Assembly: GCA_027001995.1 (NCBI GenBank)
Contig: JALTLO010000115.1
Location: 33,029-48,644 of the forward strand
Direction: 5' to 3'
DNA length: 15,616 nucleotides
Source: Planctomycetota bacterium
GTDB taxonomy: Bacteria > Planctomycetota > GCA-002687715 > DRQF01
A program made the translations under genes and the position numbers. The notes beneath the pieces were generated by a model. That model was given only the letters and a program-made list of their open reading frames with translations, was not told where the DNA came from and ran no database searches. Below, one piece after another: positions 191 to 11,497 of this stretch. Every line of letters begins with the position of its first letter. The first letter of the stretch is position 1.

Positions 191-242
191 GTGCAAGAAG
201 AAGCTCAGTCTTCCTTTTGTGCAAGAAGAAGCTCAGTCTTCC
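187..242. repeat. Perfect 28-bp tandem duplication (TTTTGTGCAAGAAGAAGCTCAGTCTTCC x2)
   Basis: Identical copies at 187-214 and 215-242 with no spacer. The second copy contains the stop codon of the minus-strand gene (233-235). Confidence 0.95.
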
Positions 243-760
243 AGATCGTCAATGAGTGAGTCAATGATCCCCGTCGGCAAAGAAACGGTAGCACCATGTT
301 TGTCCAAGACATCCCCCCATTCATCATCGCTCATCCCAGACTCAGCAAGAAACCTGGCAACGAGAGCATCCCCAGCTCCATGGTCCAGATCGAATAAGCT
401 GTCTAAGTCATTTCCTTGGACATCCAAGGCTAGGTGAGTCAATAGGATGAGCCCATCTTCATCCGTCAGTTCCCCCAACGCCTGGTTCCAAGAATCAATC
501 TTTGAGGTGATCTCATTCAACGCAGCCAAAGTAAAAGCAGTGGCGTGGTAGATGGGTGTCCGTCCATCCAAATCACCCGTCAGAATAAGATTTCTTGTGT
601 TTGTCAGAGCCTGCTTGAGGCAACCCTTAGCTATTTCTTCATCGTTTGAGACATGAAAGGCCAGATCAAAGTTGGGCGCATAGATGCGCCCAAGGACATT
701 CTCAAGAGCGTCCAAATTCCCCTTGAGTGCATTGATGAGAACATAGTCCTTCTTCGCCAT
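233..760 (-). CDS. Hypothetical acidic protein with a degenerate ECF sigma-70-like layout (regions 2 and 4)
   Basis: 175 aa with SD AGGGGGAG just upstream of the ATG. LINALKGNLDALENVLGRIYAPNFDLAFHVSNDEEIAKGCLKQAL follows the hydrophobic pattern of ECF region 1.2/2. NQALGELTDEDGLILLTHLALDVQGNDLDSLFDLDHGAGDALVARF follows region 4 (AL..L....R.VL.L....LS..EIA..L....GTVKSRL.RA). The CDS is secure; the fold call is tentative. Confidence 0.6.
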   Translation of the reverse strand: MAKKDYVLINALKGNLDALENVLGRIYAPNFDLAFHVSNDEEIAKGCLKQALTNTRNLILTGDLDGRTPIYHATAFTLAALNEITSKIDSWNQALGELTDEDGLILLTHLALDVQGNDLDSLFDLDHGAGDALVARFLAESGMSDDEWGDVLDKHGATVSLPTGIIDSLIDDLED

Positions 761-836: not shown

Positions 837-2714
837 TCAGTTCAGCCACATACGCATGTGCTTCATTTCGTCAACAAGTTCCTCAAGGACGTCTCCCGTG
901 GAACCCCTCAAAAGAACATCAGCGATAGAATCAAAGTCCGTCGCCGTGTAGTTGACGATAATAAGTTTGGCACCATTGGACGCGGCCCGGGCCACAAGAG
1001 ACGCCACGGGCTCAACGCTCAAGGAAGTACCCGCCACAAGAAGTAGATCACATTGATCAATCAATGTGAGCGCTTTTTGGCTCGACTCCTGTTTCATGGG
1101 TTGGCCAAAGGCGATGGAATCTGGCTTGAGAAGTCCTTGGCAGTGGAGACAATAGGGAACTTCGGTTCCGTGGAGAATCCAACGAAAAACCTCATCTCTC
1201 GAATATGCCGCCCCACAGCTCAAGCAACTGACGCCGAATTCATCACCATGAATCTCAACAACACGCTCTGCTTTATTGCCAGCCCTTTGATGCAAACGAT
1301 CAACATTCTGGGTGATGATGCCTGAGAGTTTACCGATTTTCTCAAGGTCAGCGAGAGCCCGATGTGCCTTGTTCGGTTTTGCTTCACGGAGCAAGACGTA
1401 GAAATCTTGGCTCATCCGCCAATAGGTCTTACGGGCATTTTCATCCCGAAGGAAAGCAGAGTAGACCAGATCCGCCGGGTCATAGGCAGTCCAAGCAATG
1501 ATCCCAGAACGATAGTCGGGGACACCAGATTCAGTGCTGATTCCAGCCCCCGTCAAGACCACAACGCGCTCGCTGGCAAGAAGGTGATTGACAGCTTTCT
1601 TGATGGACTTAGCGGGTACTCCTGGAGGTTGAGGTTTCTGCATCTCTTCGACATCTTGCCAATAGCGCATTCCAGCCGCTCGACTCGGCCCAAAATTGGG
1701 CACGGCATCAGAGCCGACGCGATAAAGTGGTACAGGCACTGGCAAGAACTTGAGGATGGGCTTAGGAGCAAACCGCAAGATCCCCAAGGCTACGATGGCC
1801 GTAAGGGCAAAAGGAAGAGTCAAGAGCGGCAGCTCGAGTTGTTCGAAAAACAACCCTGTAACTTGCCAAAGCGGAGCCGCCACCATCATCGACGCCACTG
1901 CCAGGAGAAAGCTGCGCCAACTTGCGTGAACGAAGAAAAAACCGAGGGCCAACCCCAGAGGTGCTGCGGTAAACCAAGTGAAACCTGGGTAGCGGGGGGC
2001 ATTCGCACCCAAGAGAAGCCCAGCGACGCTCAAAGCCAAGGCAACTGAGACAAGCACCGCGGGAATGCGCCGAGGATTCTCAATGGCGTAACCCAACAAG
2101 AGCAAGACGGCCACGGGTAAATGAGGTAGTCCAGCGTCAAACCAAAGGCGCCAGGCATCTTTCAGGCCAGCGAGGCCATGCCAATGGACATCAACGAACG
2201 ATGGAAAATAAGCATCCGGAGACAAAGTCAGCACGCCAAGACCAACGAAGATCTTGCTCATACCCCAAACAGAAAGCATGGACGGAAAAGTGAGGGCTGG
2301 AAGACCCGGTCTGTCCGACCACCCAGTCAGGGAATAGAGCCGCATCAGGAACCCGGATGTTGCAGAAGAAAAAAGGACCAGCATCATGGGCCAGCCATAG
2401 TCCACTTCCACCGCAGGAACCAATCCTTCGGGGGTCACAAAAGCAATACTACCCAAACCGGCCAATACGCCGTTGTAGCCGAAGACACCACTTTCGACCA
2501 TCAGCCGATCGGCGCCCAGCAAGCGGGCGACGAAGCTCGACACGAGAGCGCCAGCTAAGGCACTCGCACCGGCGAGGGGATGCAAGACGAAAAGAGCGAT
2601 AAGAAATACTAATCCCGATGCGGACCCTGAGGCGAAGAATAACAAGCCGTGACTCTTCAACAGAGTTCGGACTTGGTTCTCAACCCCCGTTGACCAATGC
2701 CTGATCAATGTCAA
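837..2714 (-). CDS. Fusion protein: N-terminal urea-transporter (UT)-family membrane domain plus C-terminal NAD-dependent sirtuin (Sir2/CobB-like) deacylase domain
   Basis: UT domain (~1760-2690): many hydrophobic helices, GVFGYNGVLAG, and twin signatures LPALTFP and LPLLTLPF. Sirtuin domain (~840-1605): TGAGISTESGVPDYR, KPNKAH, TQNVDRLH, EIHG catalytic His, CLSC/CLHC zinc ribbon, GTSL, IIVN. The frame is uninterrupted. Start is TTG at 2714 (overlapping the upstream TGA) or TTG at 2708 (better spacing from SD GGGGAG). Confidence 0.92.
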   Translation of the reverse strand: MTLIRHWSTGVENQVRTLLKSHGLLFFASGSASGLVFLIALFVLHPLAGASALAGALVSSFVARLLGADRLMVESGVFGYNGVLAGLGSIAFVTPEGLVPAVEVDYGWPMMLVLFSSATSGFLMRLYSLTGWSDRPGLPALTFPSMLSVWGMSKIFVGLGVLTLSPDAYFPSFVDVHWHGLAGLKDAWRLWFDAGLPHLPVAVLLLLGYAIENPRRIPAVLVSVALALSVAGLLLGANAPRYPGFTWFTAAPLGLALGFFFVHASWRSFLLAVASMMVAAPLWQVTGLFFEQLELPLLTLPFALTAIVALGILRFAPKPILKFLPVPVPLYRVGSDAVPNFGPSRAAGMRYWQDVEEMQKPQPPGVPAKSIKKAVNHLLASERVVVLTGAGISTESGVPDYRSGIIAWTAYDPADLVYSAFLRDENARKTYWRMSQDFYVLLREAKPNKAHRALADLEKIGKLSGIITQNVDRLHQRAGNKAERVVEIHGDEFGVSCLSCGAAYSRDEVFRWILHGTEVPYCLHCQGLLKPDSIAFGQPMKQESSQKALTLIDQCDLLLVAGTSLSVEPVASLVARAASNGAKLIIVNYTATDFDSIADVLLRGSTGDVLEELVDEMKHMRMWLN

Positions 2715-4081
2715 CTCCCCTTCGGCATCAGACTGTCAGGAACACTTTCCAATGCCAAAGCGTCGGCCACCGTCTCTTCTCGCCGAATCACGTGAACTTC
2801 ATCATCCAACGCCATAACGTAATTGGGTCGGGAATAAATGAACTGCATGGACTGACTGAAGTTATAGGCCCCAACCTTTCGAATTGCATAGACGTCACCA
2901 GGACGTGGAGAAGGCAAAGTCACCTTGGGCCGCACCACATCGATCTGCATACAAAGAGGACCGAACAATTTCACCCGCTCTGTGGGGCGTGGCTCAGTAG
3001 CGATAGGCGTGATCTCATGATCATACCAATAGGCTGTTGGCAAGATGTTGACGCCGGCGTCAATAATAGCCGCCCGTCCTCCGCCCCGCAGTGGCTTCAC
3101 CGAAACAACAGTCGTAATGATGTCGCCACAATCGTCCACCAGAGCACGGCCCGGTTCCAAAATCAACTCGGGCTCATAACCCTCTTTTTCTTTCGCCCGT
3201 ATGAGAGGCTCTGTCACACAGTCGGCATACATTTCTGGAGTAGGAGATGTGGCCGTTCCTTGGAGCATCTGACCCCGTAGGGTATTCGATGAAGCATACC
3301 CTCCTCCCATATCAATGGAGCCAGGGGCAACGCCAAATTTATCCCTCAGTCGAAGAGCCAGTTCCACAAGAGCTGACGCTCCTTTGCGGTATTGATCGGG
3401 ATTAGGAATATAGGTGCCCACATGCATGTGCAAACCAGCAAGTTCGAACTCAGGATTCGCCAAAATTCGCTTGGCCATGGCCATGGCATCACCACTTGCT
3501 AAATTAAAACCGAATTTATCCCAAGGCGGGTAACTCACATCCATATTGACGCGAATGCCGATACGTTTCTTGCCAGGAATATCTTTGGCCAGACGTTCAA
3601 CACGCAAGAGCTCATCGTGATTGTCCAAGTTTACTTGAGACCCATTCTCGAAGGCCCCAATCAGCTCCGCGTTCTTTTTCCAAGGCCCGTTAAACGTGAT
3701 GTCTTCCCCAGGAATTCCCAATCGCCGGCAGACGGCATACTCGAATCCTGACACCACCTCCATTTTCGCACCTTGCTGATACAAGAAAGCGACTAAGGAA
3801 CTCAGGTAGTTCGTTTTCACCGAGTACGCGACGTGCATCTTCTCGTAGTGCTGCTTAAATGCCCCGACGAATCCCTCGTAACTTTTCTTCAGTTGTTTGC
3901 CATCGAAGATCACCAGAGGTGATCCGTACTGTTCAAGTAAAGCAAGCGGGTCATGTCCGGCAATTCGGTCCATTGCCTGTGCTTGACGTTGGCTTAAGGG
4001 CGACCTTGTCGTCATAGGCCGATCTAAGGGAATGACCTTGGGAGCCTCATAAAGTCGCGTAGTTTTCTTCGCCTTTGTCAT
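2711..4081 (-). CDS. Group IV (alanine-racemase fold) PLP-dependent decarboxylase, LysA/BtrK-like; substrate unknown
   Basis: YGSPL, YSVKTN (PLP lysine), FNGPWK, DKFG, HMHVGT, DMGGG, EPGRAL, DAG, GPLCMQID, VGAY. ATGA overlap with the upstream gene at 4078-4081. Confidence 0.92.
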   Translation of the reverse strand: MTKAKKTTRLYEAPKVIPLDRPMTTRSPLSQRQAQAMDRIAGHDPLALLEQYGSPLVIFDGKQLKKSYEGFVGAFKQHYEKMHVAYSVKTNYLSSLVAFLYQQGAKMEVVSGFEYAVCRRLGIPGEDITFNGPWKKNAELIGAFENGSQVNLDNHDELLRVERLAKDIPGKKRIGIRVNMDVSYPPWDKFGFNLASGDAMAMAKRILANPEFELAGLHMHVGTYIPNPDQYRKGASALVELALRLRDKFGVAPGSIDMGGGYASSNTLRGQMLQGTATSPTPEMYADCVTEPLIRAKEKEGYEPELILEPGRALVDDCGDIITTVVSVKPLRGGGRAAIIDAGVNILPTAYWYDHEITPIATEPRPTERVKLFGPLCMQIDVVRPKVTLPSPRPGDVYAIRKVGAYNFSQSMQFIYSRPNYVMALDDEVHVIRREETVADALALESVPDSLMPKGS

Positions 4082-5031
4082 CGGCCAATCCTCTCCAACA
4101 AAGTACTTTGATCAATTGCAAAATCTATCGGTGCGTCGGCGTAGTAGAGACCTGAAGATGTGACGACTCCCGATTCTGCCGATTTCATCGCCGCCATCAA
4201 ATCACTTTCACAAGCCACAAGACAAGAACTGGGAAGAGGCATCGAAGCAACAAACCGAGCTTTTCTTTGTCCTGGCGCGCTTAACCACAGCGTCTGAAAG
4301 AAACCACTTGGCAGCTTAAGGTGAGTCAAATCGTCGATTGCTCGATTCCAGACCCGACCATCTACAGTTCTACCCATGGCCAATCGCCACGATGGCCGCA
4401 TGGAGTCAGCTCTAAAAAAAGCATGATGGCACCCTTTATCGTTCTCGAAATAGTGCAACCCCATGAACAAATCCCTCCCCAAGGAAGGAATCAATGCACA
4501 GGGGCCGACTCCCTTGCGGACAAGGGAAGCGAGCCGAAACCAAGCTTCACCTCCATCCTCCACCGCCACCAGGACGCCGTCCGGCTTCAAGATCCAGCCA
4601 CCATGAAAGATCTTCGCGCAGAGCTTACGGTCTGGTTTCGAAACGATCACCTCGTGTTCAGCTATAGGAACTTCCGCCACCGCCGCCGCTGCCAGAGATG
4701 CGAATCCTCGTGGCGAATCGAGGAGATCTTCCAAGGCAGATTGCCATGAATCATGTTCTTGATCACTCCGTAAGGCGTCTAACCACTCTAAGGCCGCCCG
4801 CGTTCCCGGCACCACAAGGTCATCTGGCCCCAGATCCTCAATCACCTCAAGGAGGCCAGATCCATCAACGCACTGGGCAAGGGAATCTTGCTGCCATCCA
4901 GAATCCATGGGAGAAACAGTCCAGCATTGATGCTTGACCTCCAAGCGGCGGAGCATGGATGCCAATGCTGCTCCACCGCCACCGTCGGGACCATCGTCCA
5001 AGTCGACAATATGTATGTTCCTATCTGCCAT
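4078..5031 (-). CDS. Degenerate ATP-grasp-like protein, apparent paralogue of 7474-8577
   Basis: 317 aa, translationally coupled on both sides. It is collinear with the active ligase: IVDLDDGPDGGGGAALASMLRR vs ISGLDSGTNPHPGTAVAMALKR, LVVPGT vs VLLPCL, SGLYY vs AGIYF. It lacks the ExNxR motif. Confidence 0.65.
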   Translation of the reverse strand: MADRNIHIVDLDDGPDGGGGAALASMLRRLEVKHQCWTVSPMDSGWQQDSLAQCVDGSGLLEVIEDLGPDDLVVPGTRAALEWLDALRSDQEHDSWQSALEDLLDSPRGFASLAAAAVAEVPIAEHEVIVSKPDRKLCAKIFHGGWILKPDGVLVAVEDGGEAWFRLASLVRKGVGPCALIPSLGRDLFMGLHYFENDKGCHHAFFRADSMRPSWRLAMGRTVDGRVWNRAIDDLTHLKLPSGFFQTLWLSAPGQRKARFVASMPLPSSCLVACESDLMAAMKSAESGVVTSSGLYYADAPIDFAIDQSTLLERIGR

Positions 5032-5032
5032 C

Positions 5033-7477
5033 CTATTTCCTCAACCCTTTGTTGATGGCTTCCAAACCTTGAGAAGCTGTTTCCAAGCGCGGCTCCTTTG
5101 CCAGTGCTTTCAAGAAGTAGCTCCTTGCCCGTGCTGGTTTACCCATTTGAAACCATGTCCAACCCAGGGCGCTCAATAAATCCACCCCTAAATCCTTATC
5201 ACGGCCTTCTCGCTTTTCGACTTTTTGAAACCGCCGCAAAGCTCGCTTAGTGAGACCAGCACTGTAGAGATTCCAGCCAAGAGTCATGTCCAAAGCCCGC
5301 CACGCTGCCTTATCGGCAGCGGTCTTGCCAAGAGTTTGGATCCAAGCCTCAGCATATTTTTCGGCTTCGTCGAATTTCTTCGATGCGCTGCAGGCCAAGG
5401 CCAAACCTTTCTTGTGCAAAGCTTCACCGGGTTCGAGTTCAACGGCTTTGGTGAAGTTCGCAACCGATTTTTCGTACTTGCTCCGGTTGTAGAAAGCCCA
5501 CCCCAACGTACCGTAGAGGGGGCGAAACTCCTCAAACTTAGACATCCATTCAGAAAGTTCTGATTCGGCAATGTACTCAGGGTCGGAATTAACCACAGCC
5601 GTGAATGCAATGCGAGCTTCGATGTGTCGGTTCTTAGCAATAAGCATCCGGCCATAACGATCATTGAGTTCAGCATCCGTGGGAAAGTCCTTAACCCACT
5701 GTGCCAAGAGATCAAAGACCTCTTCCCCACGATTCCATTCAATGAGTGCCCGGGCCAGGAGCTTACGAGGCCGAGGGTCGTTAGGAAGTTGAGCCAAAAG
5801 TGGTTCTAAGACTCGTTTCGCATCGCCATACTCACGCAGACTCACCAAGGCCCACCCCAATCCGACACCGGCATCGGTCAGTTTTGGATTTCTTTGCAAT
5901 GCCGAACGAAAGAGTTTGGCAGCATCTCTAGGTCTGCTTTGTAGTCGGGCAATGTGCCCAAGGGAGTAATCGATCAGGTCGATGCGCGCCCGAGGGAATC
6001 TCTTGGCAGGATCTTGCCTCAGATTCTTGAAGATTGCCGATGCACCGTCCAATTCTCCGGTGCCTATAAGAGCCCAGGCCCGATTGTAGTCCTCAAAACG
6101 CCACACTTGAATCAGTTTCATTCCCTCGATTGCAGGGGAATAGTCCGGCATTGCTGCCAGAGATTTTTGGAAGCTCATCTCGGCTTCCAGGTATTTCTTT
6201 TGCGCAATCCTCACATAACCAAGGCCGGCATGAGCATCTGCCCATTCACCTTGAAGTTCAAGGGCCTTCTCAAACATGGTGGCAGCTTCATCCGCTTCTC
6301 CCAGCCGTAAATGAGCCCAGCCCGCAATCGTAGAAGCCGACAGCTCAACTTCCGTTGTTGCACTTCCATCTGCATTCGGGACCCGCTGATCACGCTGAGG
6401 ATCCTGCCCTCTGTCATGGAGAGACTTAGTGATCCTTAAGGCACCCAAGTTGTCGCCTTGATTGAGAGCACACAGGGCGTCCCCAAGAAGCATTTGGTCG
6501 CGTTCGACATTGGTGGCAGCCGAGCGAAAAACCTGTTGGGCGCTTAAGTACTGCCCAAATTCTGTCAGTGCAAAGCCATAGTCGACCAAGAGACCATTGC
6601 GAGACTTATCCTGGCGAATCCAGGCGAGTAGATCAGCAGTGGCAGCGCTTGGGGACATCTCAAGAGCCCGGCGAAACAATTGAAACGCCTTATCTTTGTC
6701 GCCCTTCTTATTGAGGGACCAGGCCATGCCGTACACAGCACCCCAACTTTGAGGAAAGAGCTCCCGAGCTTTTTCGAAACGCCTCAATGCCGCAGTTGAA
6801 TTGCCCGAATAATAAGCGCACCAACCGTGACTCAGTCGGACTTGCAAATTGTTCGGGTCATACTTGATGGTATGTTCGAAAGCGATGTCAGCTAAACTGT
6901 ATTTCTTACGAGCCAGTTCCACGAAACCAATCCCCGCACTGGTCACGGGATCGTTGCGAACAATGCGATTGGCTTTTTTCAGGTCCTTGAGAGCTTTTTG
7001 GTAGAGCCCAAGGTAGTAATAGCAATAGCCGCGCCCGCGATAGCAACGATTCAAAATATCGTCGTGAGGCCGCGGACGTTTTTCCAGGATGGCGTCAAAA
7101 GTCGCAACCGATTCAGTATATCGGCTTTGAGCCAGCAACGTTTCCGCACGAACGATCTCCCCGAGACGGGCGTTCTTAACGCTCTCGAGGCCCATTTTCG
7201 AATAGCGATAGTTCTTGTCGATCGAAAGCGCTTTCTTGAAGCAAGTTTCTGCTTGATCAAGATCGCCACGAAAGAAATAACACCAGCCCAAGCCGTCTTG
7301 AATCTCATGACTCTTGGGGTAAAGACGGGCATCTTTGGCCAACAATTCAAGAGCTACATCATATCGTTTCTGTTTGAAGTAGTCCCAACCAGTGAGACCA
7401 CCCTTCTTTGAACTTTGTCCCAGAGATGTTCCCACAATGAGGAGAACAACAAGCACGATCCAGGAGAAGCGTTTCAT
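5033..7477 (-). CDS. Large exported tetratricopeptide-repeat protein
   Basis: 814 aa with Sec-type signal peptide MKRFSWIVLVVLLIVGTSLG. Many TPR units carry a recurring (L/I)GW motif (GLGWCYF, SHGWCAY, IAGWAHL, GLGWAL, TLGWAFY, TLGWNLY, ALGWTWF). ATGA overlap with the ligase stop. Confidence 0.9.
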   Translation of the reverse strand: MKRFSWIVLVVLLIVGTSLGQSSKKGGLTGWDYFKQKRYDVALELLAKDARLYPKSHEIQDGLGWCYFFRGDLDQAETCFKKALSIDKNYRYSKMGLESVKNARLGEIVRAETLLAQSRYTESVATFDAILEKRPRPHDDILNRCYRGRGYCYYYLGLYQKALKDLKKANRIVRNDPVTSAGIGFVELARKKYSLADIAFEHTIKYDPNNLQVRLSHGWCAYYSGNSTAALRRFEKARELFPQSWGAVYGMAWSLNKKGDKDKAFQLFRRALEMSPSAATADLLAWIRQDKSRNGLLVDYGFALTEFGQYLSAQQVFRSAATNVERDQMLLGDALCALNQGDNLGALRITKSLHDRGQDPQRDQRVPNADGSATTEVELSASTIAGWAHLRLGEADEAATMFEKALELQGEWADAHAGLGYVRIAQKKYLEAEMSFQKSLAAMPDYSPAIEGMKLIQVWRFEDYNRAWALIGTGELDGASAIFKNLRQDPAKRFPRARIDLIDYSLGHIARLQSRPRDAAKLFRSALQRNPKLTDAGVGLGWALVSLREYGDAKRVLEPLLAQLPNDPRPRKLLARALIEWNRGEEVFDLLAQWVKDFPTDAELNDRYGRMLIAKNRHIEARIAFTAVVNSDPEYIAESELSEWMSKFEEFRPLYGTLGWAFYNRSKYEKSVANFTKAVELEPGEALHKKGLALACSASKKFDEAEKYAEAWIQTLGKTAADKAAWRALDMTLGWNLYSAGLTKRALRRFQKVEKREGRDKDLGVDLLSALGWTWFQMGKPARARSYFLKALAKEPRLETASQGLEAINKGLRK

Positions 7478-8577
7478 TTCTTGCTTTCCGACAAAAGGTT
7501 GTCTTTGTCATGTTGCTCAGTGCGAACCCCAAGCTCGTTGCTTAGCACGGCATCCCAAACCTTGAGACTATTACTGGAACCGTATGATTGTATGTGCCCC
7601 CGGGAGAAATAGATCCCTGCTTTCGGGCTCGGAACGAATTCCGGGTTCATCCCCGCAGCCTCGGCGACCGCTGCATGAACAATGGGAAAGTCGATTTCCG
7701 TTGCGAAAGAAATCCAAGCTGGAAATCGCCCATTCACTTCGATCAACAAGAAGTCACCTGTTGTGGCATCCTTCATGAATTCCAATTCAAAAGGACCTTG
7801 CCAATTGAGCACTTCAAGGAGTTTCCGCGCCACTTGGTCTAACTCAGGGTTTGCCACCGTAACGCCCGAGGTCGCTTTGCCAGAAGAGGTGGTATTCCCC
7901 TTCTTGACGCTCACAGACCCCAGGAGCCCTCGACGCCCCACTACCCCAGCAACAAGGTATTCAACGCCAGCGCGACACTCCTGAGCCATCACGGGATAAC
8001 CCCATTTTTTTGCCATCTTGCGAAACAAAAATTCGGCTTCTTCTTTGTCAAAGGCAAGTTCAGCATCTGCCAATGCGCCTTTAACATAGAGCGGAAAAGA
8101 CCAACCATCCAAGGGATGGAGCTGGCCCGTGTCATAGAGAACACTTGTTCTGGGAGTGAGCAAATTGGCCTGAGAGGCGAGCTCAGACAAATTCCATTTG
8201 AAGCGCCGCTTGACGGAGTCTTCTTGAGGCACCAAAGAGTGTATGCCAATCTCTCGGAGAGGATCTCCTAAGCGTGCGACGGTGGGCAAGTCAGAATCCA
8301 AGCAAGGCAACAAGACATTCAGGCCAAGGTCATGGTGAATGCCAGACAAAGAGCGCATGTACCAATCTTCATGGTCCCCGGGCCAAGGAACCAGAGCGAC
8401 ATCATCGAATAGGTCCTCCATGAATGCACCTGGGATCATGGGATCGTAGGCCAAGGCAATGAGGCGACCATGAAAGTTGGGGTCCCGCTTCAGCGCCATC
8501 GCCACCGCCGTTCCTGGGTGTGGGTTCGTTCCGGAATCAAGCCCACTGATTCCAACGACCAATTCAGAATCGAGCAT
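7474..8577 (-). CDS. ATP-grasp (carboxylate-amine) ligase
   Basis: FPLYVKG, VMAQE, GVEY, WQGPFELEF and the catalytic motif FLLIEVNGRF. ATG at 8577 is preferred over TTG at 8583 because of its spacing from GGGGGTGG. Overlaps the end of the PqqD-like gene. Confidence 0.9.
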   Translation of the reverse strand: MLDSELVVGISGLDSGTNPHPGTAVAMALKRDPNFHGRLIALAYDPMIPGAFMEDLFDDVALVPWPGDHEDWYMRSLSGIHHDLGLNVLLPCLDSDLPTVARLGDPLREIGIHSLVPQEDSVKRRFKWNLSELASQANLLTPRTSVLYDTGQLHPLDGWSFPLYVKGALADAELAFDKEEAEFLFRKMAKKWGYPVMAQECRAGVEYLVAGVVGRRGLLGSVSVKKGNTTSSGKATSGVTVANPELDQVARKLLEVLNWQGPFELEFMKDATTGDFLLIEVNGRFPAWISFATEIDFPIVHAAVAEAAGMNPEFVPSPKAGIYFSRGHIQSYGSSNSLKVWDAVLSNELGVRTEQHDKDNLLSESKK

Positions 8578-8848
8578 CTTCAACCACCCCCAGCCTGACT
8601 AGGTCAAGAAGACAGCGTTCAACATCCCCCCGCACAACTTCTTCATCGACGTCAAAACCTTCGACCAAAGCCGCAATAATCTGGGAGCGTCCGGCGCCTT
8701 GCTGCAATTGCGATAACACCAAATGGGCGCTATCATTGAGCAACAGGACTTGCCCCGATTCGGGAATCCGCAGCAGCAGCCCCCGATCGCTGGAATCCAA
8801 GTCGAATTCAACTTTGAGGCTCAGTTTCGCCTCGCTTGTCTCAGACAT
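8564..8848 (-). CDS. Stand-alone PqqD-family protein / RiPP recognition element (RRE)
   Basis: 94 aa with the classic three-strand plus three-helix pattern: LLLRIPESGQVLLLNDSAHLVLSQL...SQIIAALVEGFDVDEEVVRGDVERCLLDLVRLGVV. GGGGG SD upstream. Confidence 0.9.
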   Translation of the reverse strand: MSETSEAKLSLKVEFDLDSSDRGLLLRIPESGQVLLLNDSAHLVLSQLQQGAGRSQIIAALVEGFDVDEEVVRGDVERCLLDLVRLGVVEDARF

Positions 8849-8964: not shown

Positions 8965-10671
8965 TTATCGGCTCAACAGACTCAAAGCCTGCCTCACCGC
9001 CTTCGATAGCACACGATCCTCAGGATCCCGGCGAGCATATTTAATCACATTCCTTACTTGTCGGCGACTTAAGTGCCCTTTTCCTTGTCCCTTCTTAAGA
9101 ACACGCAGCACCGAAAGATGAACACTTGGAGGAAAATCGTACAGTTGCGGTGCATGACCCGCCAAGTGAGCAGCCAAAGCCCCCACAGCCGTCTTTGGAC
9201 GTTCCGTGGTTTCCACCGTCTCCAGAAGCTCCAAAGCACGGATTCCGGATGCTTTTCTTAGGTTCTTGATCGCCTCGTCTCGGCGGCCTTCATCAAGAAG
9301 TCGGCGCACGTACAATAAATTCCTGGCATCGTCAGCCAAGGATCCTTGATGAGATTCAGTTGGCGCATAGGTTGCGGACAATGGAGCAAATCGTAGGCGA
9401 CGCTCTAGATTCTCGAGAGCCTTGGGGGCCGACAGGTCACCTCCTTGAATAGCAGCCCTAAAGGCCTCCCGAGCCGCTTCTGAATGACCAAGCAATTCCT
9501 CGGCCTCACCAAGAATCCCAGGTGGACAGCTCTCTTTCGCCAACTCGATGAGGGGCGCGATGACATCAATACGCTTGATACCGATTGCAGAACGAAGAGC
9601 TTCAGCCCCCAGGCGCCCTCGATGTTTGTTGTCCAAGACCCAGTCGATCAGAAGGTCATGAAGGCCAGAACGCCTAAACACTTGTGCGCAGGCCAATAGA
9701 TCTTCCGGCTCCGAATCCAACCAAGCTGATGCCGCCTCCTCCGAGACATAGGGAGAGACGGCCCAAGAGGATTCCACAATTAGAGGAAGAAGTTTAGCAA
9801 GTTTTCGATCTTTCTTCGCGAATATCAGCAGGTCTGGCCCTGAGGCATGCCAACCCACGGCACAGGCCGCAGCAAAAGCAGAAACTGTGTCGTCATGGTT
9901 ATGACGCCAACGAGACCATGCCCAACCCCAAGCACTCTCTAAGTCGAGAGAATTCCGGCCCATGGCAGCTCCAAAAGCTCTGCTGGCCGCTGCATAGTTG
10001 CCGTCTTCATAGTGACACCAACCAATGAGTGCCAAAGGCGCCGGCGCCATCTTGTTGAGATTCGCCGCGTGCCCAAAAATCGGTCGCGCGGCTCTGCGCT
10101 CCCCCATGGCTCGATAGGCACTGGCTGTCCCATAGAATGCATCCATGTGCCGCGGATCAACACGAGCCGCCCGCTGAAAGAAATCAAGTGCCACCCGAGG
10201 TAACCCCGCAGACATCTCCACCCACCCAGCCCCGCATAGAACAGAAGTCAAAGCCTCCGCCGGAAGGCGACGTCCAACAAGTTTCAACGCCGACGCAAAA
10301 GCTTCTCGGGCTTGGTCAACGTCTCCCAACTTAATTAAGGCATAGGCTTGACTCAGGGGTTCATAACGATGTCTGGCCAGAGCATCTGCTTGAAACCGAA
10401 GCCCAGTGTGCTCGGGGTAGCTCAAACATGCGTCGTCCAAGAAACGCTGAGCCTCGGCCTCCCGCCCCACTTTCTGCAAAGCGATGGCATAGGCGCGAGC
10501 AGCATCGGCAGAAAATTCCGAGCGGGCAGCCAACTCGTCCATCACCTCCGCTGACAATCCCTCAATAGTGGCCCCTAGGAGGGCATCTCCCCCTTCGTAG
10601 GGGCGATCCCGTCGCCGACGACGCCAGAGAAAGCGCCCAAAGGCGAAGACATTTTTGAATTGATTAGTCAT
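8965..10671 (-). CDS. TPR-repeat protein, no signal peptide, Arg-rich N-terminus
   Basis: 568 aa, Ala-rich and helical. TPR units include GAGWVEM..ALDFFQRAARVDP and LIGWCHYEDGNYAAASRAF. The central part is collinear with modules of the 814-aa TPR protein. Confidence 0.8.
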   Translation of the reverse strand: MTNQFKNVFAFGRFLWRRRRRDRPYEGGDALLGATIEGLSAEVMDELAARSEFSADAARAYAIALQKVGREAEAQRFLDDACLSYPEHTGLRFQADALARHRYEPLSQAYALIKLGDVDQAREAFASALKLVGRRLPAEALTSVLCGAGWVEMSAGLPRVALDFFQRAARVDPRHMDAFYGTASAYRAMGERRAARPIFGHAANLNKMAPAPLALIGWCHYEDGNYAAASRAFGAAMGRNSLDLESAWGWAWSRWRHNHDDTVSAFAAACAVGWHASGPDLLIFAKKDRKLAKLLPLIVESSWAVSPYVSEEAASAWLDSEPEDLLACAQVFRRSGLHDLLIDWVLDNKHRGRLGAEALRSAIGIKRIDVIAPLIELAKESCPPGILGEAEELLGHSEAAREAFRAAIQGGDLSAPKALENLERRLRFAPLSATYAPTESHQGSLADDARNLLYVRRLLDEGRRDEAIKNLRKASGIRALELLETVETTERPKTAVGALAAHLAGHAPQLYDFPPSVHLSVLRVLKKGQGKGHLSRRQVRNVIKYARRDPEDRVLSKAVRQALSLLSR

Positions 10672-10853
10672 TTCAAGATTGCGTTAAAGTCCTTTGCCAC
10701 AAGAGTTTCGCAGCAATCTCCCAAGAAATCCAATAGTTAACTGACATTCTTACCTATCGGGGCAAACTCCTATCCTCGCCAAGAAGATTCTCGTTCTTTG
10801 ATAGCCAATTCTTCAGAATTCAAAGATCTTCTCCCCACTTTAGCTCCGGTCTC

Positions 10854-10882
10854 TTGCCCATTTCGGAGCCAGTTTCTACATT
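10854..10882 (+). promoter_or_regulatory. Sigma-70-type promoter positioned for a leaderless transcript
   Basis: TTGCCC (10854-10859), 17 nt, TACATT (10877-10882), 6 nt, ATG (10889). No SD upstream of the ATG. Confidence 0.6.
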
Positions 10883-10888
10883 CTTCCC

Positions 10889-11497
10889 ATGAAAACACTC
10901 ATAATCATCACCGTCATCGCGTTCTTGACTGCTTGCGGCGGCCAAGATCACAACAATAATACCGCCGAAGATCGTCCATCAAACCCGACGAGTCAACCGG
11001 CGAAAAGTAAGGCCCAAGAAACTCCCAAGTCCATGCCGACTATGAATCCGGCGGAAAATCCAAAGGCCAAAGCCGCTCCTGAGGCCCCTTACAACTATGG
11101 AGCTCCCAAGAAAGCCGCCGGATGGGCAACGCCCAAAGCCATCAAAGTGCAACACATTTTGGTGAGCTTCACCGGAGCCGCAGGCGAAGGACGACTTGGC
11201 AAACGCATCCCTCGGACCCAAGAGCAGGCCAGGAACTTGGTGCACGGTTTAGTCAAGCGCCTTCGTAATGGCGAAGAAATGCTGCCTTTGGTGAAGAAAC
11301 ACACCCAAGATAGTGCTCCAGGCATCTACGAGATGTGTATCGGCAGACCGACTAAGAGAGGTCAAGTACCGCGAGCGGGCATGGTGAAGAATTTCGGGGA
11401 CGTTTCCTTTTCGTTAGACGTTGGCGAGGTTGGATTGGCTGAATATGACAGAACCAATTCCCCCTTCGGCTACCACATTATCAAACGTCTGGAGTAA
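10889..11497 (+). CDS. Lipoprotein parvulin (PpiC/rotamase)-type peptidyl-prolyl cis-trans isomerase
   Basis: Signal peptide with lipobox FLTA-C, then a P/A/K-rich linker. Parvulin motifs VQHILVSF, GMVKNFGDVSFSLDVGEV and SPFGYHIIK. Confidence 0.92.
   Translation: MKTLIIITVIAFLTACGGQDHNNNTAEDRPSNPTSQPAKSKAQETPKSMPTMNPAENPKAKAAPEAPYNYGAPKKAAGWATPKAIKVQHILVSFTGAAGEGRLGKRIPRTQEQARNLVHGLVKRLRNGEEMLPLVKKHTQDSAPGIYEMCIGRPTKRGQVPRAGMVKNFGDVSFSLDVGEVGLAEYDRTNSPFGYHIIKRLE

Follow-up and report, generated by a model that had tools for sequence, protein, structure and literature searches.

The RRE encoded in this operon very probably binds the N-terminal tail of a fold-III PLP decarboxylase encoded four genes further along, in which the ligand appears to be a leader-like motif of the type found in lasso peptide precursors. 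Because conservation, linkage, co-loss and co-variation of the motif and the RRE were all observed, we infer their interaction from evolution and regard it as real and well supported. The proposal of the first-pass annotation that the RRE ligand is built into the decarboxylase is thereby strongly supported, the co-variation being one in which motif Tyr and RRE Asp change in compensation. None of the four outcomes that the annotation had named as refuting it was observed. The minus strand of the window (the whole stretch of DNA analysed, 15,616 nucleotides) carries a tightly packed operon in the order TPR, RRE, ATP-grasp ligase, TPR, a 317-aa gene, decarboxylase and channel-sirtuin fusion, with the following features:

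8965..10671, minus strand: first gene of the operon, TPR protein, accessory (domain search)
8564..8848, minus strand: discrete RRE of the PqqD family, lasso B1 type, 94 residues (PF05402, 4e-11)
7474..8583, minus strand: ATP-grasp ligase with intact ExNxR motif (Pfam/NCBIfam search, motif alignment)
5033..7477, minus strand: TPR protein with a signal-peptide-like start, accessory (domain search)
4078..5031, minus strand: second ATP-grasp homologue, degenerate, 317 aa, without the catalytic motif (hhalign)
2711..4081, minus strand: fold-III PLP decarboxylase, 456 aa, FslC/FigC-like (PF02784, 6e-32; PF00278, 2e-12)
3962..4081, minus strand: N-terminal tail of the decarboxylase, residues 1–40, with a basic stretch, the motif and Arg26 (low pLDDT, alignment)
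4034..4051, minus strand: leader-like motif YEAPKV, Y11–V16, presumed RRE ligand (ORF translation, homologue alignment)
837..2714, minus strand: urea-transporter-like membrane domain fused to a sirtuin (domain search)

The RRE, whose presence the first-pass annotation had reported, was confirmed by the domain search at 8848–8564 and is the sole PF05402 match in the window genome (92% complete). The ligase gene overlaps the 3′ end of the RRE gene and has its likely start at ATG 8577. Across the cassette family ExNxR was kept by the first ligase in 154 of 161 loci and by the second ATP-grasp copies in 2 of 53 rows. The 317-aa protein of the window aligned with the second-copy ATP-grasps of relatives (hhalign 97%, E 3.9e-11), and the sequences suggest that this copy may be a pseudo-enzyme that partners the active ligase. 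When ORFs no shorter than 45 aa from 92 loci were clustered, the decarboxylase was recovered in 91, the ATP-grasp in 87, the channel in 85, the RRE in 77 and TPR proteins in 66, with no further core gene. Among the genomes sampled, 29 of 401 from Bacteroidota and 21 of 301 from Planctomycetota carried the cassette (E below 1e-100), which occurs in other phyla too; the closest named relatives are labelled Planctomycetota. A search of a plasmid collection gave no match. In the layouts inspected the RRE gene lies directly 5′ of the ligase gene, the exceptions being a split cassette (L039) and a locus with a gene interposed (L041).

The decarboxylase ORF (4081–2711, minus strand) opens with MTKAKKTTRLYEAPKV. 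The probable start is the ATG at 4081, which shares bases with the stop codon TGA of the 5′ gene (ATGA); a good putative ribosome site, GGAGAGGA, ends 8 bases 5′ of this ATG. A start at Met23, which had been raised earlier as an alternative, was rejected: Met23 is not preceded by a ribosome site, and homologues retain the motif 5′ of Met23. The N-terminal extension with YEAPKV at 4034–4051, as first annotated, was confirmed by the ORF and by alignment of homologues. Solved relatives (best hits) align with the decarboxylase only from residue 32–48 onward, and in a model of the monomer residues 1–30 had a pLDDT of 54–58 and no strand pairing (whole-protein mean 91). Arg26 (4006–4004) occupies the position fifteen residues after the motif Tyr (Tyr+15), where relatives have Lys or Arg. 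Of the 3063 six-frame ORFs in the window genome that reach 200 aa, 12 have YxxPx[LIV] within their first 25 residues and 92 have a broad form of the motif there; taken singly, the motif of the window sequence could be chance. This doubt was removed by its conservation in 113 of 116 homologues.

These homologues were the 120 best, window included, less four set aside as truncated or mis-anchored. The form [Y/F/W]xxPx[hydrophobic] was kept in 113 of the 116 scorable proteins (Tyr 96, Phe 16, Trp 1), approximately 40–46 residues N-terminal of the start of the catalytic core, so that the tail has a nearly fixed length. Lys or Arg stood three residues N-terminal of the motif in 93 of the 113 and at Tyr+15 in 99. 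When 150 representatives were taken from a word-free search, 15 of the best 17 and 8 of the remaining 133 had the motif in the correct place, as counted from a printout in which about 30 rows had no anchor. Matches in genome searches fell into two groups: alignments began at residue 2–9 in the high group and, for the most part, at residue 23–42 in the low one. Among 30 low-group paralogues (10 of the 46 Bacteroidota and 20 of the 29 Planctomycetota matches; five of them less than 600 bases from the end of the contig on one side, three mis-anchored) neither the motif nor, within up to 9 kb, an RRE was found in any. Judged by these two sets, the motif is confined to the cassette. The 30 are mostly LysA with a C-E loop; five have C-M, so that this loop says nothing specific about the product of the cassette.

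We then scored motif and RRE together in the 149 distinct in-group decarboxylases that were left after removal of 18 duplicates and of 14 rows that had no anchor. The motif was accompanied by a linked RRE in 115, lay at a contig edge in 25 and had an unlinked RRE in two; four decarboxylases had neither motif nor RRE, one had an RRE without the motif, and two motif-less ones lay at a contig edge. As for the two unlinked cases, the RRE of L039, with its Asp intact, sits in the other half of the split cassette, while the contig of L176 ends 127 bases after the gene and the genome has a second cassette with an RRE. The four cases without motif and RRE correspond to two events on the tree. Two of them, L020 and L248, keep the TPRs, both ligases, the decarboxylase and the channel, but TPR and ligase genes are direct neighbours, and the incomplete assembly of L020 yielded no RRE; with ligases, decarboxylase and channel all retained, this lineage can dispense with the RRE. 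In the other two, L022 and L024, the decarboxylase stands alone; for L022 the RRE hit that was examined sits in a PQQ operon. Both are Rokubacteria proteins (near 9900–11300 in their loci) nested in the cassette family without motif, RRE or ligases, and they follow genes which by eye resemble methanopterin-linked C1 genes. As a counter-example, L019 (5186–5461 and 10001–10060) keeps the RRE and its Asp although the motif Tyr is replaced by Pro. Nine residues are inserted immediately ahead of helix 3 in the L019 RRE, and its pocket is possibly remodelled; L009, the sister of L019, was scored as motif-bearing only via an upstream Phe match.

Among solved structures the RRE family profile matched TbiB1 (2e-15) and TfuB1 (3e-14) best, followed by PbaB1 and LppB, the chains of the latter two being named from entry codes in PMC13381572. 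According to the accessible text of that paper, the Tyr of the leader is bonded by D70 of LppB and the kink at its Pro is held by N33; mutations of D70 and N33 weaken or nearly abolish leader binding. N38 and D75 of the window RRE align with N33 and D70, respectively. Over 115 loci the motif Tyr was paired with Asp in 99 and with Asn in one, while Phe was paired with a residue other than Asp in 15 (Tyr, His, Phe or Gly) and with Asp in none. The RRE Asp column was the best tracker of Tyr/Phe among 801 RRE, ligase and decarboxylase columns (0.99; next 0.88). Fourteen Phe rows form one Bacteroidota clade, which also holds one Tyr/Asp row and the Tyr/Asn row; the fifteenth Phe locus, L200, is distant and lies among Tyr/Asp relatives. 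Parsimony on a FastTree phylogeny with midpoint root gave four Tyr/Phe changes and three Asp changes. Since the Phe rows are kin, they represent 2–3 independent events and not 15, with Phe from at least two lineages. As read from the sequences, the direction of every one of these events is that expected on loss of a hydroxyl partner.

A predicted complex of tail residues 1–40 with the RRE scored 0.46 (runs 0.46, 0.47 and 0.46) against 0.01 for the best control. On a benchmark, support of this grade was obtained for 116 of 157 solved complexes and for 2 of 215 mismatched pairs, but with a score of 0.60 or under for only 18 of the 157 and for both mismatches. At least 89% of contacts agreed between runs, and the pLDDT of the partners was at least 52 (custom alignments, no interface output). 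As like complexes are already solved, the predictor may have reproduced known structures. The prediction lends weak support to the pairing of tail and RRE.

It is very unlikely that the motif is instead a structural part of the decarboxylase, such as a dimer contact, with the RRE serving something else. The model is that of a monomer, so a dimer contact would stay hidden, and L019 has an RRE but not the motif Tyr. Yet such a role leaves unexplained the change of the RRE Asp when Tyr becomes Phe, the joint loss of motif and RRE, and the absence of the tail from FslC and LysA.

That no free precursor is visible in the operon was noted at first reading, and scans of 51 loci, 92 loci and the genome agree with it. 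Short ORFs with the motif, down to 10 aa, were scattered over the 51 loci with none common to them, and no conserved precursor gene appeared among ORFs of 45 aa or more in the 92 loci. The genome-wide scan, which needed an ATG or GTG start and a ribosome site, gave 44 motif candidates from 13204 short ORFs; the seven whose context was inspected all lay within or overlapped longer frames. A word-based search, a weak test, gave no candidate among short proteins resembling the Lys-type tail. A separate tiny precursor could still have been overlooked, since FzmZ, a YxxP precursor of 22 residues, once escaped notice in the gene cluster for fosfazinomycin (as related in the accessible text of PMC13622209); the assemblies are incomplete and the genome scan was tied to its start and ribosome site. 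Given that history we retain this explanation as a small rival, although the lack of a shared motif-bearing short ORF and the covariation of the RRE pocket with the decarboxylase's own motif make it most improbable.

To place the cassette among known systems, we compared it with lasso B1 RREs (TbiB1, TfuB1, PbaB1) and LppB. These are likewise stand-alone RREs with an Asn and an Asp holding Pro and Tyr; their ligand, a motif given as [Y/W]xxPx[L/V/I/F/A] in the accessible text of PMC13381572, follows a basic stretch as it does in the cassette tail, and their RRE recruits enzymes as a scaffold, as the cassette RRE would. There, however, the ligand is a short precursor, whereas in the cassette it would be the N-terminus of a 456-aa enzyme, and the cassette partners are an ATP-grasp ligase, a decarboxylase and a channel fusion, without B2 protease, cyclase, core peptide or Thr-2. 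A B1-type RRE (PF05402 over the cut-off) and the leader motif are present in the window. The RRE scored below the NCBIfam lasso_PqqD cut-off (38 vs. 70 bits), B2 protease and lasso cyclase were absent from the operon (Pfam/NCBIfam) and from the conserved neighbours in 92 loci, and no free short precursor with penultimate Thr and core was found in the ORF scans and the tail alignment. Ten tails gave no NCBIfam match, no Pfam match over the cut-off and nothing significant against PDB sequences and leader HMMs, one of them reaching DUF5972 at E 0.15. With precursor, protease and cyclase not found, a lasso peptide system was rejected.

The closest match of the decarboxylase in both sequence (9e-58) and fold (1e-40) was FslC/FigC (7KH2), the N-citrylornithine decarboxylase of rhizoferrin synthesis, which we compared in a set including SbnH and AcsE. 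The two share the C-M loop and a WxxFG stretch, and in both pathways ligation would be followed by decarboxylation. They differ in that the partner of FslC/FigC is a NIS synthetase and that of the cassette enzyme an ATP-grasp; FslC aligns only from residue 37, and no RRE is known with FslC. A NIS synthetase was absent from the operon and from the conserved neighbours in 92 loci. Identity with FslC/FigC was rejected (NF041039, 213 vs. a cut-off of 500 bits), as was LysA (TIGR01048, 221 vs. 297.9 bits; C377–M378 loop, not C-E). C377–M378 is invariant in cassette decarboxylases and C-E is found in most paralogues; the Schiff-base lysine is K89. As the accessible text of PMC7857480 has it, the clade containing FslC/FigC acts on acylated or carrier-bound amino acids, and from the shared C-M loop we infer that the cassette decarboxylase may act on an N-acylated diamino acid. 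The window genome (L052) has two PF02784 matches, the decarboxylase and a 660-aa frame like arginine decarboxylase (length and motif, by eye); no LysA-type copy was found in this 92% complete assembly.

BtrJ is the ATP-grasp ligase of the butirosin route. As in the cassette, BtrJ/BtrK/BtrI include a fold-III decarboxylase, one that works on a protein-bound unit according to the accessible text of PMC7857480; BtrK is a weaker match (5e-26), and the butirosin route has no RRE. A carrier-protein route of this kind was rejected: no acyl carrier protein is among the conserved genes, and the RRE is the only conserved small one. FzmZ/FzmA/FzmT of fosfazinomycin, in the parts of PMC13622209 available, also combine YxxP with a discrete RRE in a small-molecule pathway, but there YxxP is on a free 22-residue peptide modified at its C-terminus, and in the cassette on an enzyme.

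What the tail-RRE interaction serves can be stated less firmly. We see an even chance that the RRE is an adaptor docking the FslC-like decarboxylase onto the ATP-grasp ligase. The decarboxylase would carry the lasso-type leader as a docking tag, gripped by the RRE as B1 proteins grip lasso leaders, with predicted contacts of Tyr11 with Asp75, of Pro14 with Asn38, and of Val16 in a second pocket. The adaptor would hold the decarboxylase against the ligase, the basic residue at Tyr+15 would make a charge contact, and the tail would be left unmodified. Ligase and decarboxylase may then act in turn on ornithine, lysine or a similar diamino acid, which would be acylated at its side-chain amine before being decarboxylated; the product, after FigA/FigC in rhizoferrin synthesis, would be an N-acyl-diamine whose acyl group the channel-tethered sirtuin or M23 domain might remove or trim. 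We favour docking because the RRE and ligase genes are adjacent, because of a natural 871-aa ATP-grasp/decarboxylase fusion (P0133), because of the likeness to FslC/FigC, and because Tyr+15 suits a charge contact. The gene adjacency and the fusion, a single sequence without genomic context whose linker retains the motif, also make the ligase the putative docking partner. Against an adaptor, L019 keeps the RRE Asp with Pro for Tyr, and L020 and L248 do without an RRE. When the RRE profile was run against longer proteins, one methyltransferase-like fusion and none to a ligase or decarboxylase was found, which is weak evidence.

After the motif, Tyr+15 was the sole further conserved position of the tail. 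Over 142 loci it is Lys in 99, Arg in 32 and another residue in 11 (Gln, Ser, Thr, Ala, Gly or Pro), with seven switches between Lys and Arg on the tree. No Lys stands anywhere from Tyr+6 to Tyr+31 in 24 of the 32 Arg-type tails, the window's included, and Arg-type systems have intact catalytic residues in the first ligase and the decarboxylase. No ligase column tracked Lys/Arg at Tyr+15 beyond clade signal, a point against the adaptor. The lasso-like penultimate Thr was not conserved in the tails of the top homologues, and the alignments held no invariant modifiable tail residue. In the lineage without RRE and motif, Arg at Tyr+15 is seemingly kept (by eye).

These data bear on a second role considered in the first-pass annotation, that of a fused precursor. 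The RRE would present the tail, the ligase would acylate the Lys at Tyr+15, the decarboxylase would process the tethered unit in the way BtrK handles that on BtrI, and sirtuin or M23 would release it, the tail being a built-in carrier. Sirtuins, M23 peptidases and GNAT proteins all act on amide or acyl-lysine bonds. All three occur as channel partners in the cassette family, and Lys is the residue in 99 of the 142 loci. Moreover, when counted as in LppA/PbaA, Tyr+15 corresponds to −1/+1 at the processing site (Y-16 and W-15 in the accessible text of PMC13381572), which favours a presented site, and BtrK acts on carrier-bound glutamate (PMC7857480, accessible text). Yet the 32 Arg and 11 other residues, the seven switches, the Lys-less Arg tails with intact enzymes and the apparent persistence of Arg where RRE and motif were lost render a fused precursor unlikely. 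Switching between Lys and Arg, and Lys-less tails beside intact enzymes, fit a charge contact better than an acylated Lys, at least here. Of the two roles first proposed, docking by an adaptor therefore fits and modification of the tail fits poorly.

A regulatory role seems to us rather improbable. Here the decarboxylase would be inhibited or destabilised by its tail until it is switched on, either when the RRE binds or when a protease guided by the RRE clips the tail. A Lys or Arg at a fixed distance from the core would suit a pseudo-substrate, part of the cassette family has M23 fused to the channel, and RREs present leaders to peptidases, a membrane signal peptidase among them (PMC13381572, accessible text). 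In contrast, sirtuin-type cassettes, the window's included, have no peptidase among their conserved genes, the basic residue is apparently kept in the RRE-less lineage, and the penultimate Thr of the lasso type is not conserved.

Returning to docking, the cassette points to a hitherto undescribed way of bringing enzymes together in a widespread bacterial cassette, and there is a fair chance that it constitutes a new category of RRE use. In the accessible text of PMC7470986 non-RiPP RRE hits are treated mainly as false positives, and where enzymes and a transporter accompany a discrete RRE, this is read as strongly indicating a RiPP cluster that includes a free precursor. The cassette seems to break this rule, the leader being part of an enzyme. 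In the openly readable full texts searched, neither the cassette nor an RRE that binds the N-terminus of an enzyme was described, and the accessible text and supplement PDF of PMC12710340 make no mention of decarboxylase or urea. We think it somewhat more probable than the specific docking onto the ligase that RRE-leader recognition works as a general protein-docking tag outside peptide maturation, with the RRE assembling leader-bearing enzymes into a small-molecule production line. In Lys-type members the tail may even serve its enzyme as a carrier, to be loaded by the ligase, processed by the decarboxylase that bears it and unloaded at the membrane channel. If so, many orphan RREs without a precursor could have leaders hidden on neighbouring enzymes; the cassette supplies a search rule for them and an entry to an amine-bearing product. 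The idea is testable with one peptide, one 94-residue protein and one natural compensating pair of changes.

Variation was also observed in the remainder of the cassette. The urea-transporter-like domain is joined to varying enzymes, namely a sirtuin, a sirtuin plus GNAT, a separate sirtuin gene or an M23 peptidase (window 837–2714, L010, L018, L030, L037 and L041). In a Chitinophagales genome with a split cassette (L149, 9840–11448), the RRE and a barrel-like gene lie on one contig and the ligase, decarboxylase and channel on another. Finally, a 175-aa gene 3′ of the operon (window 233–760) had no Pfam/NCBIfam match, and its homologue was found only in L002 among 50 loci.
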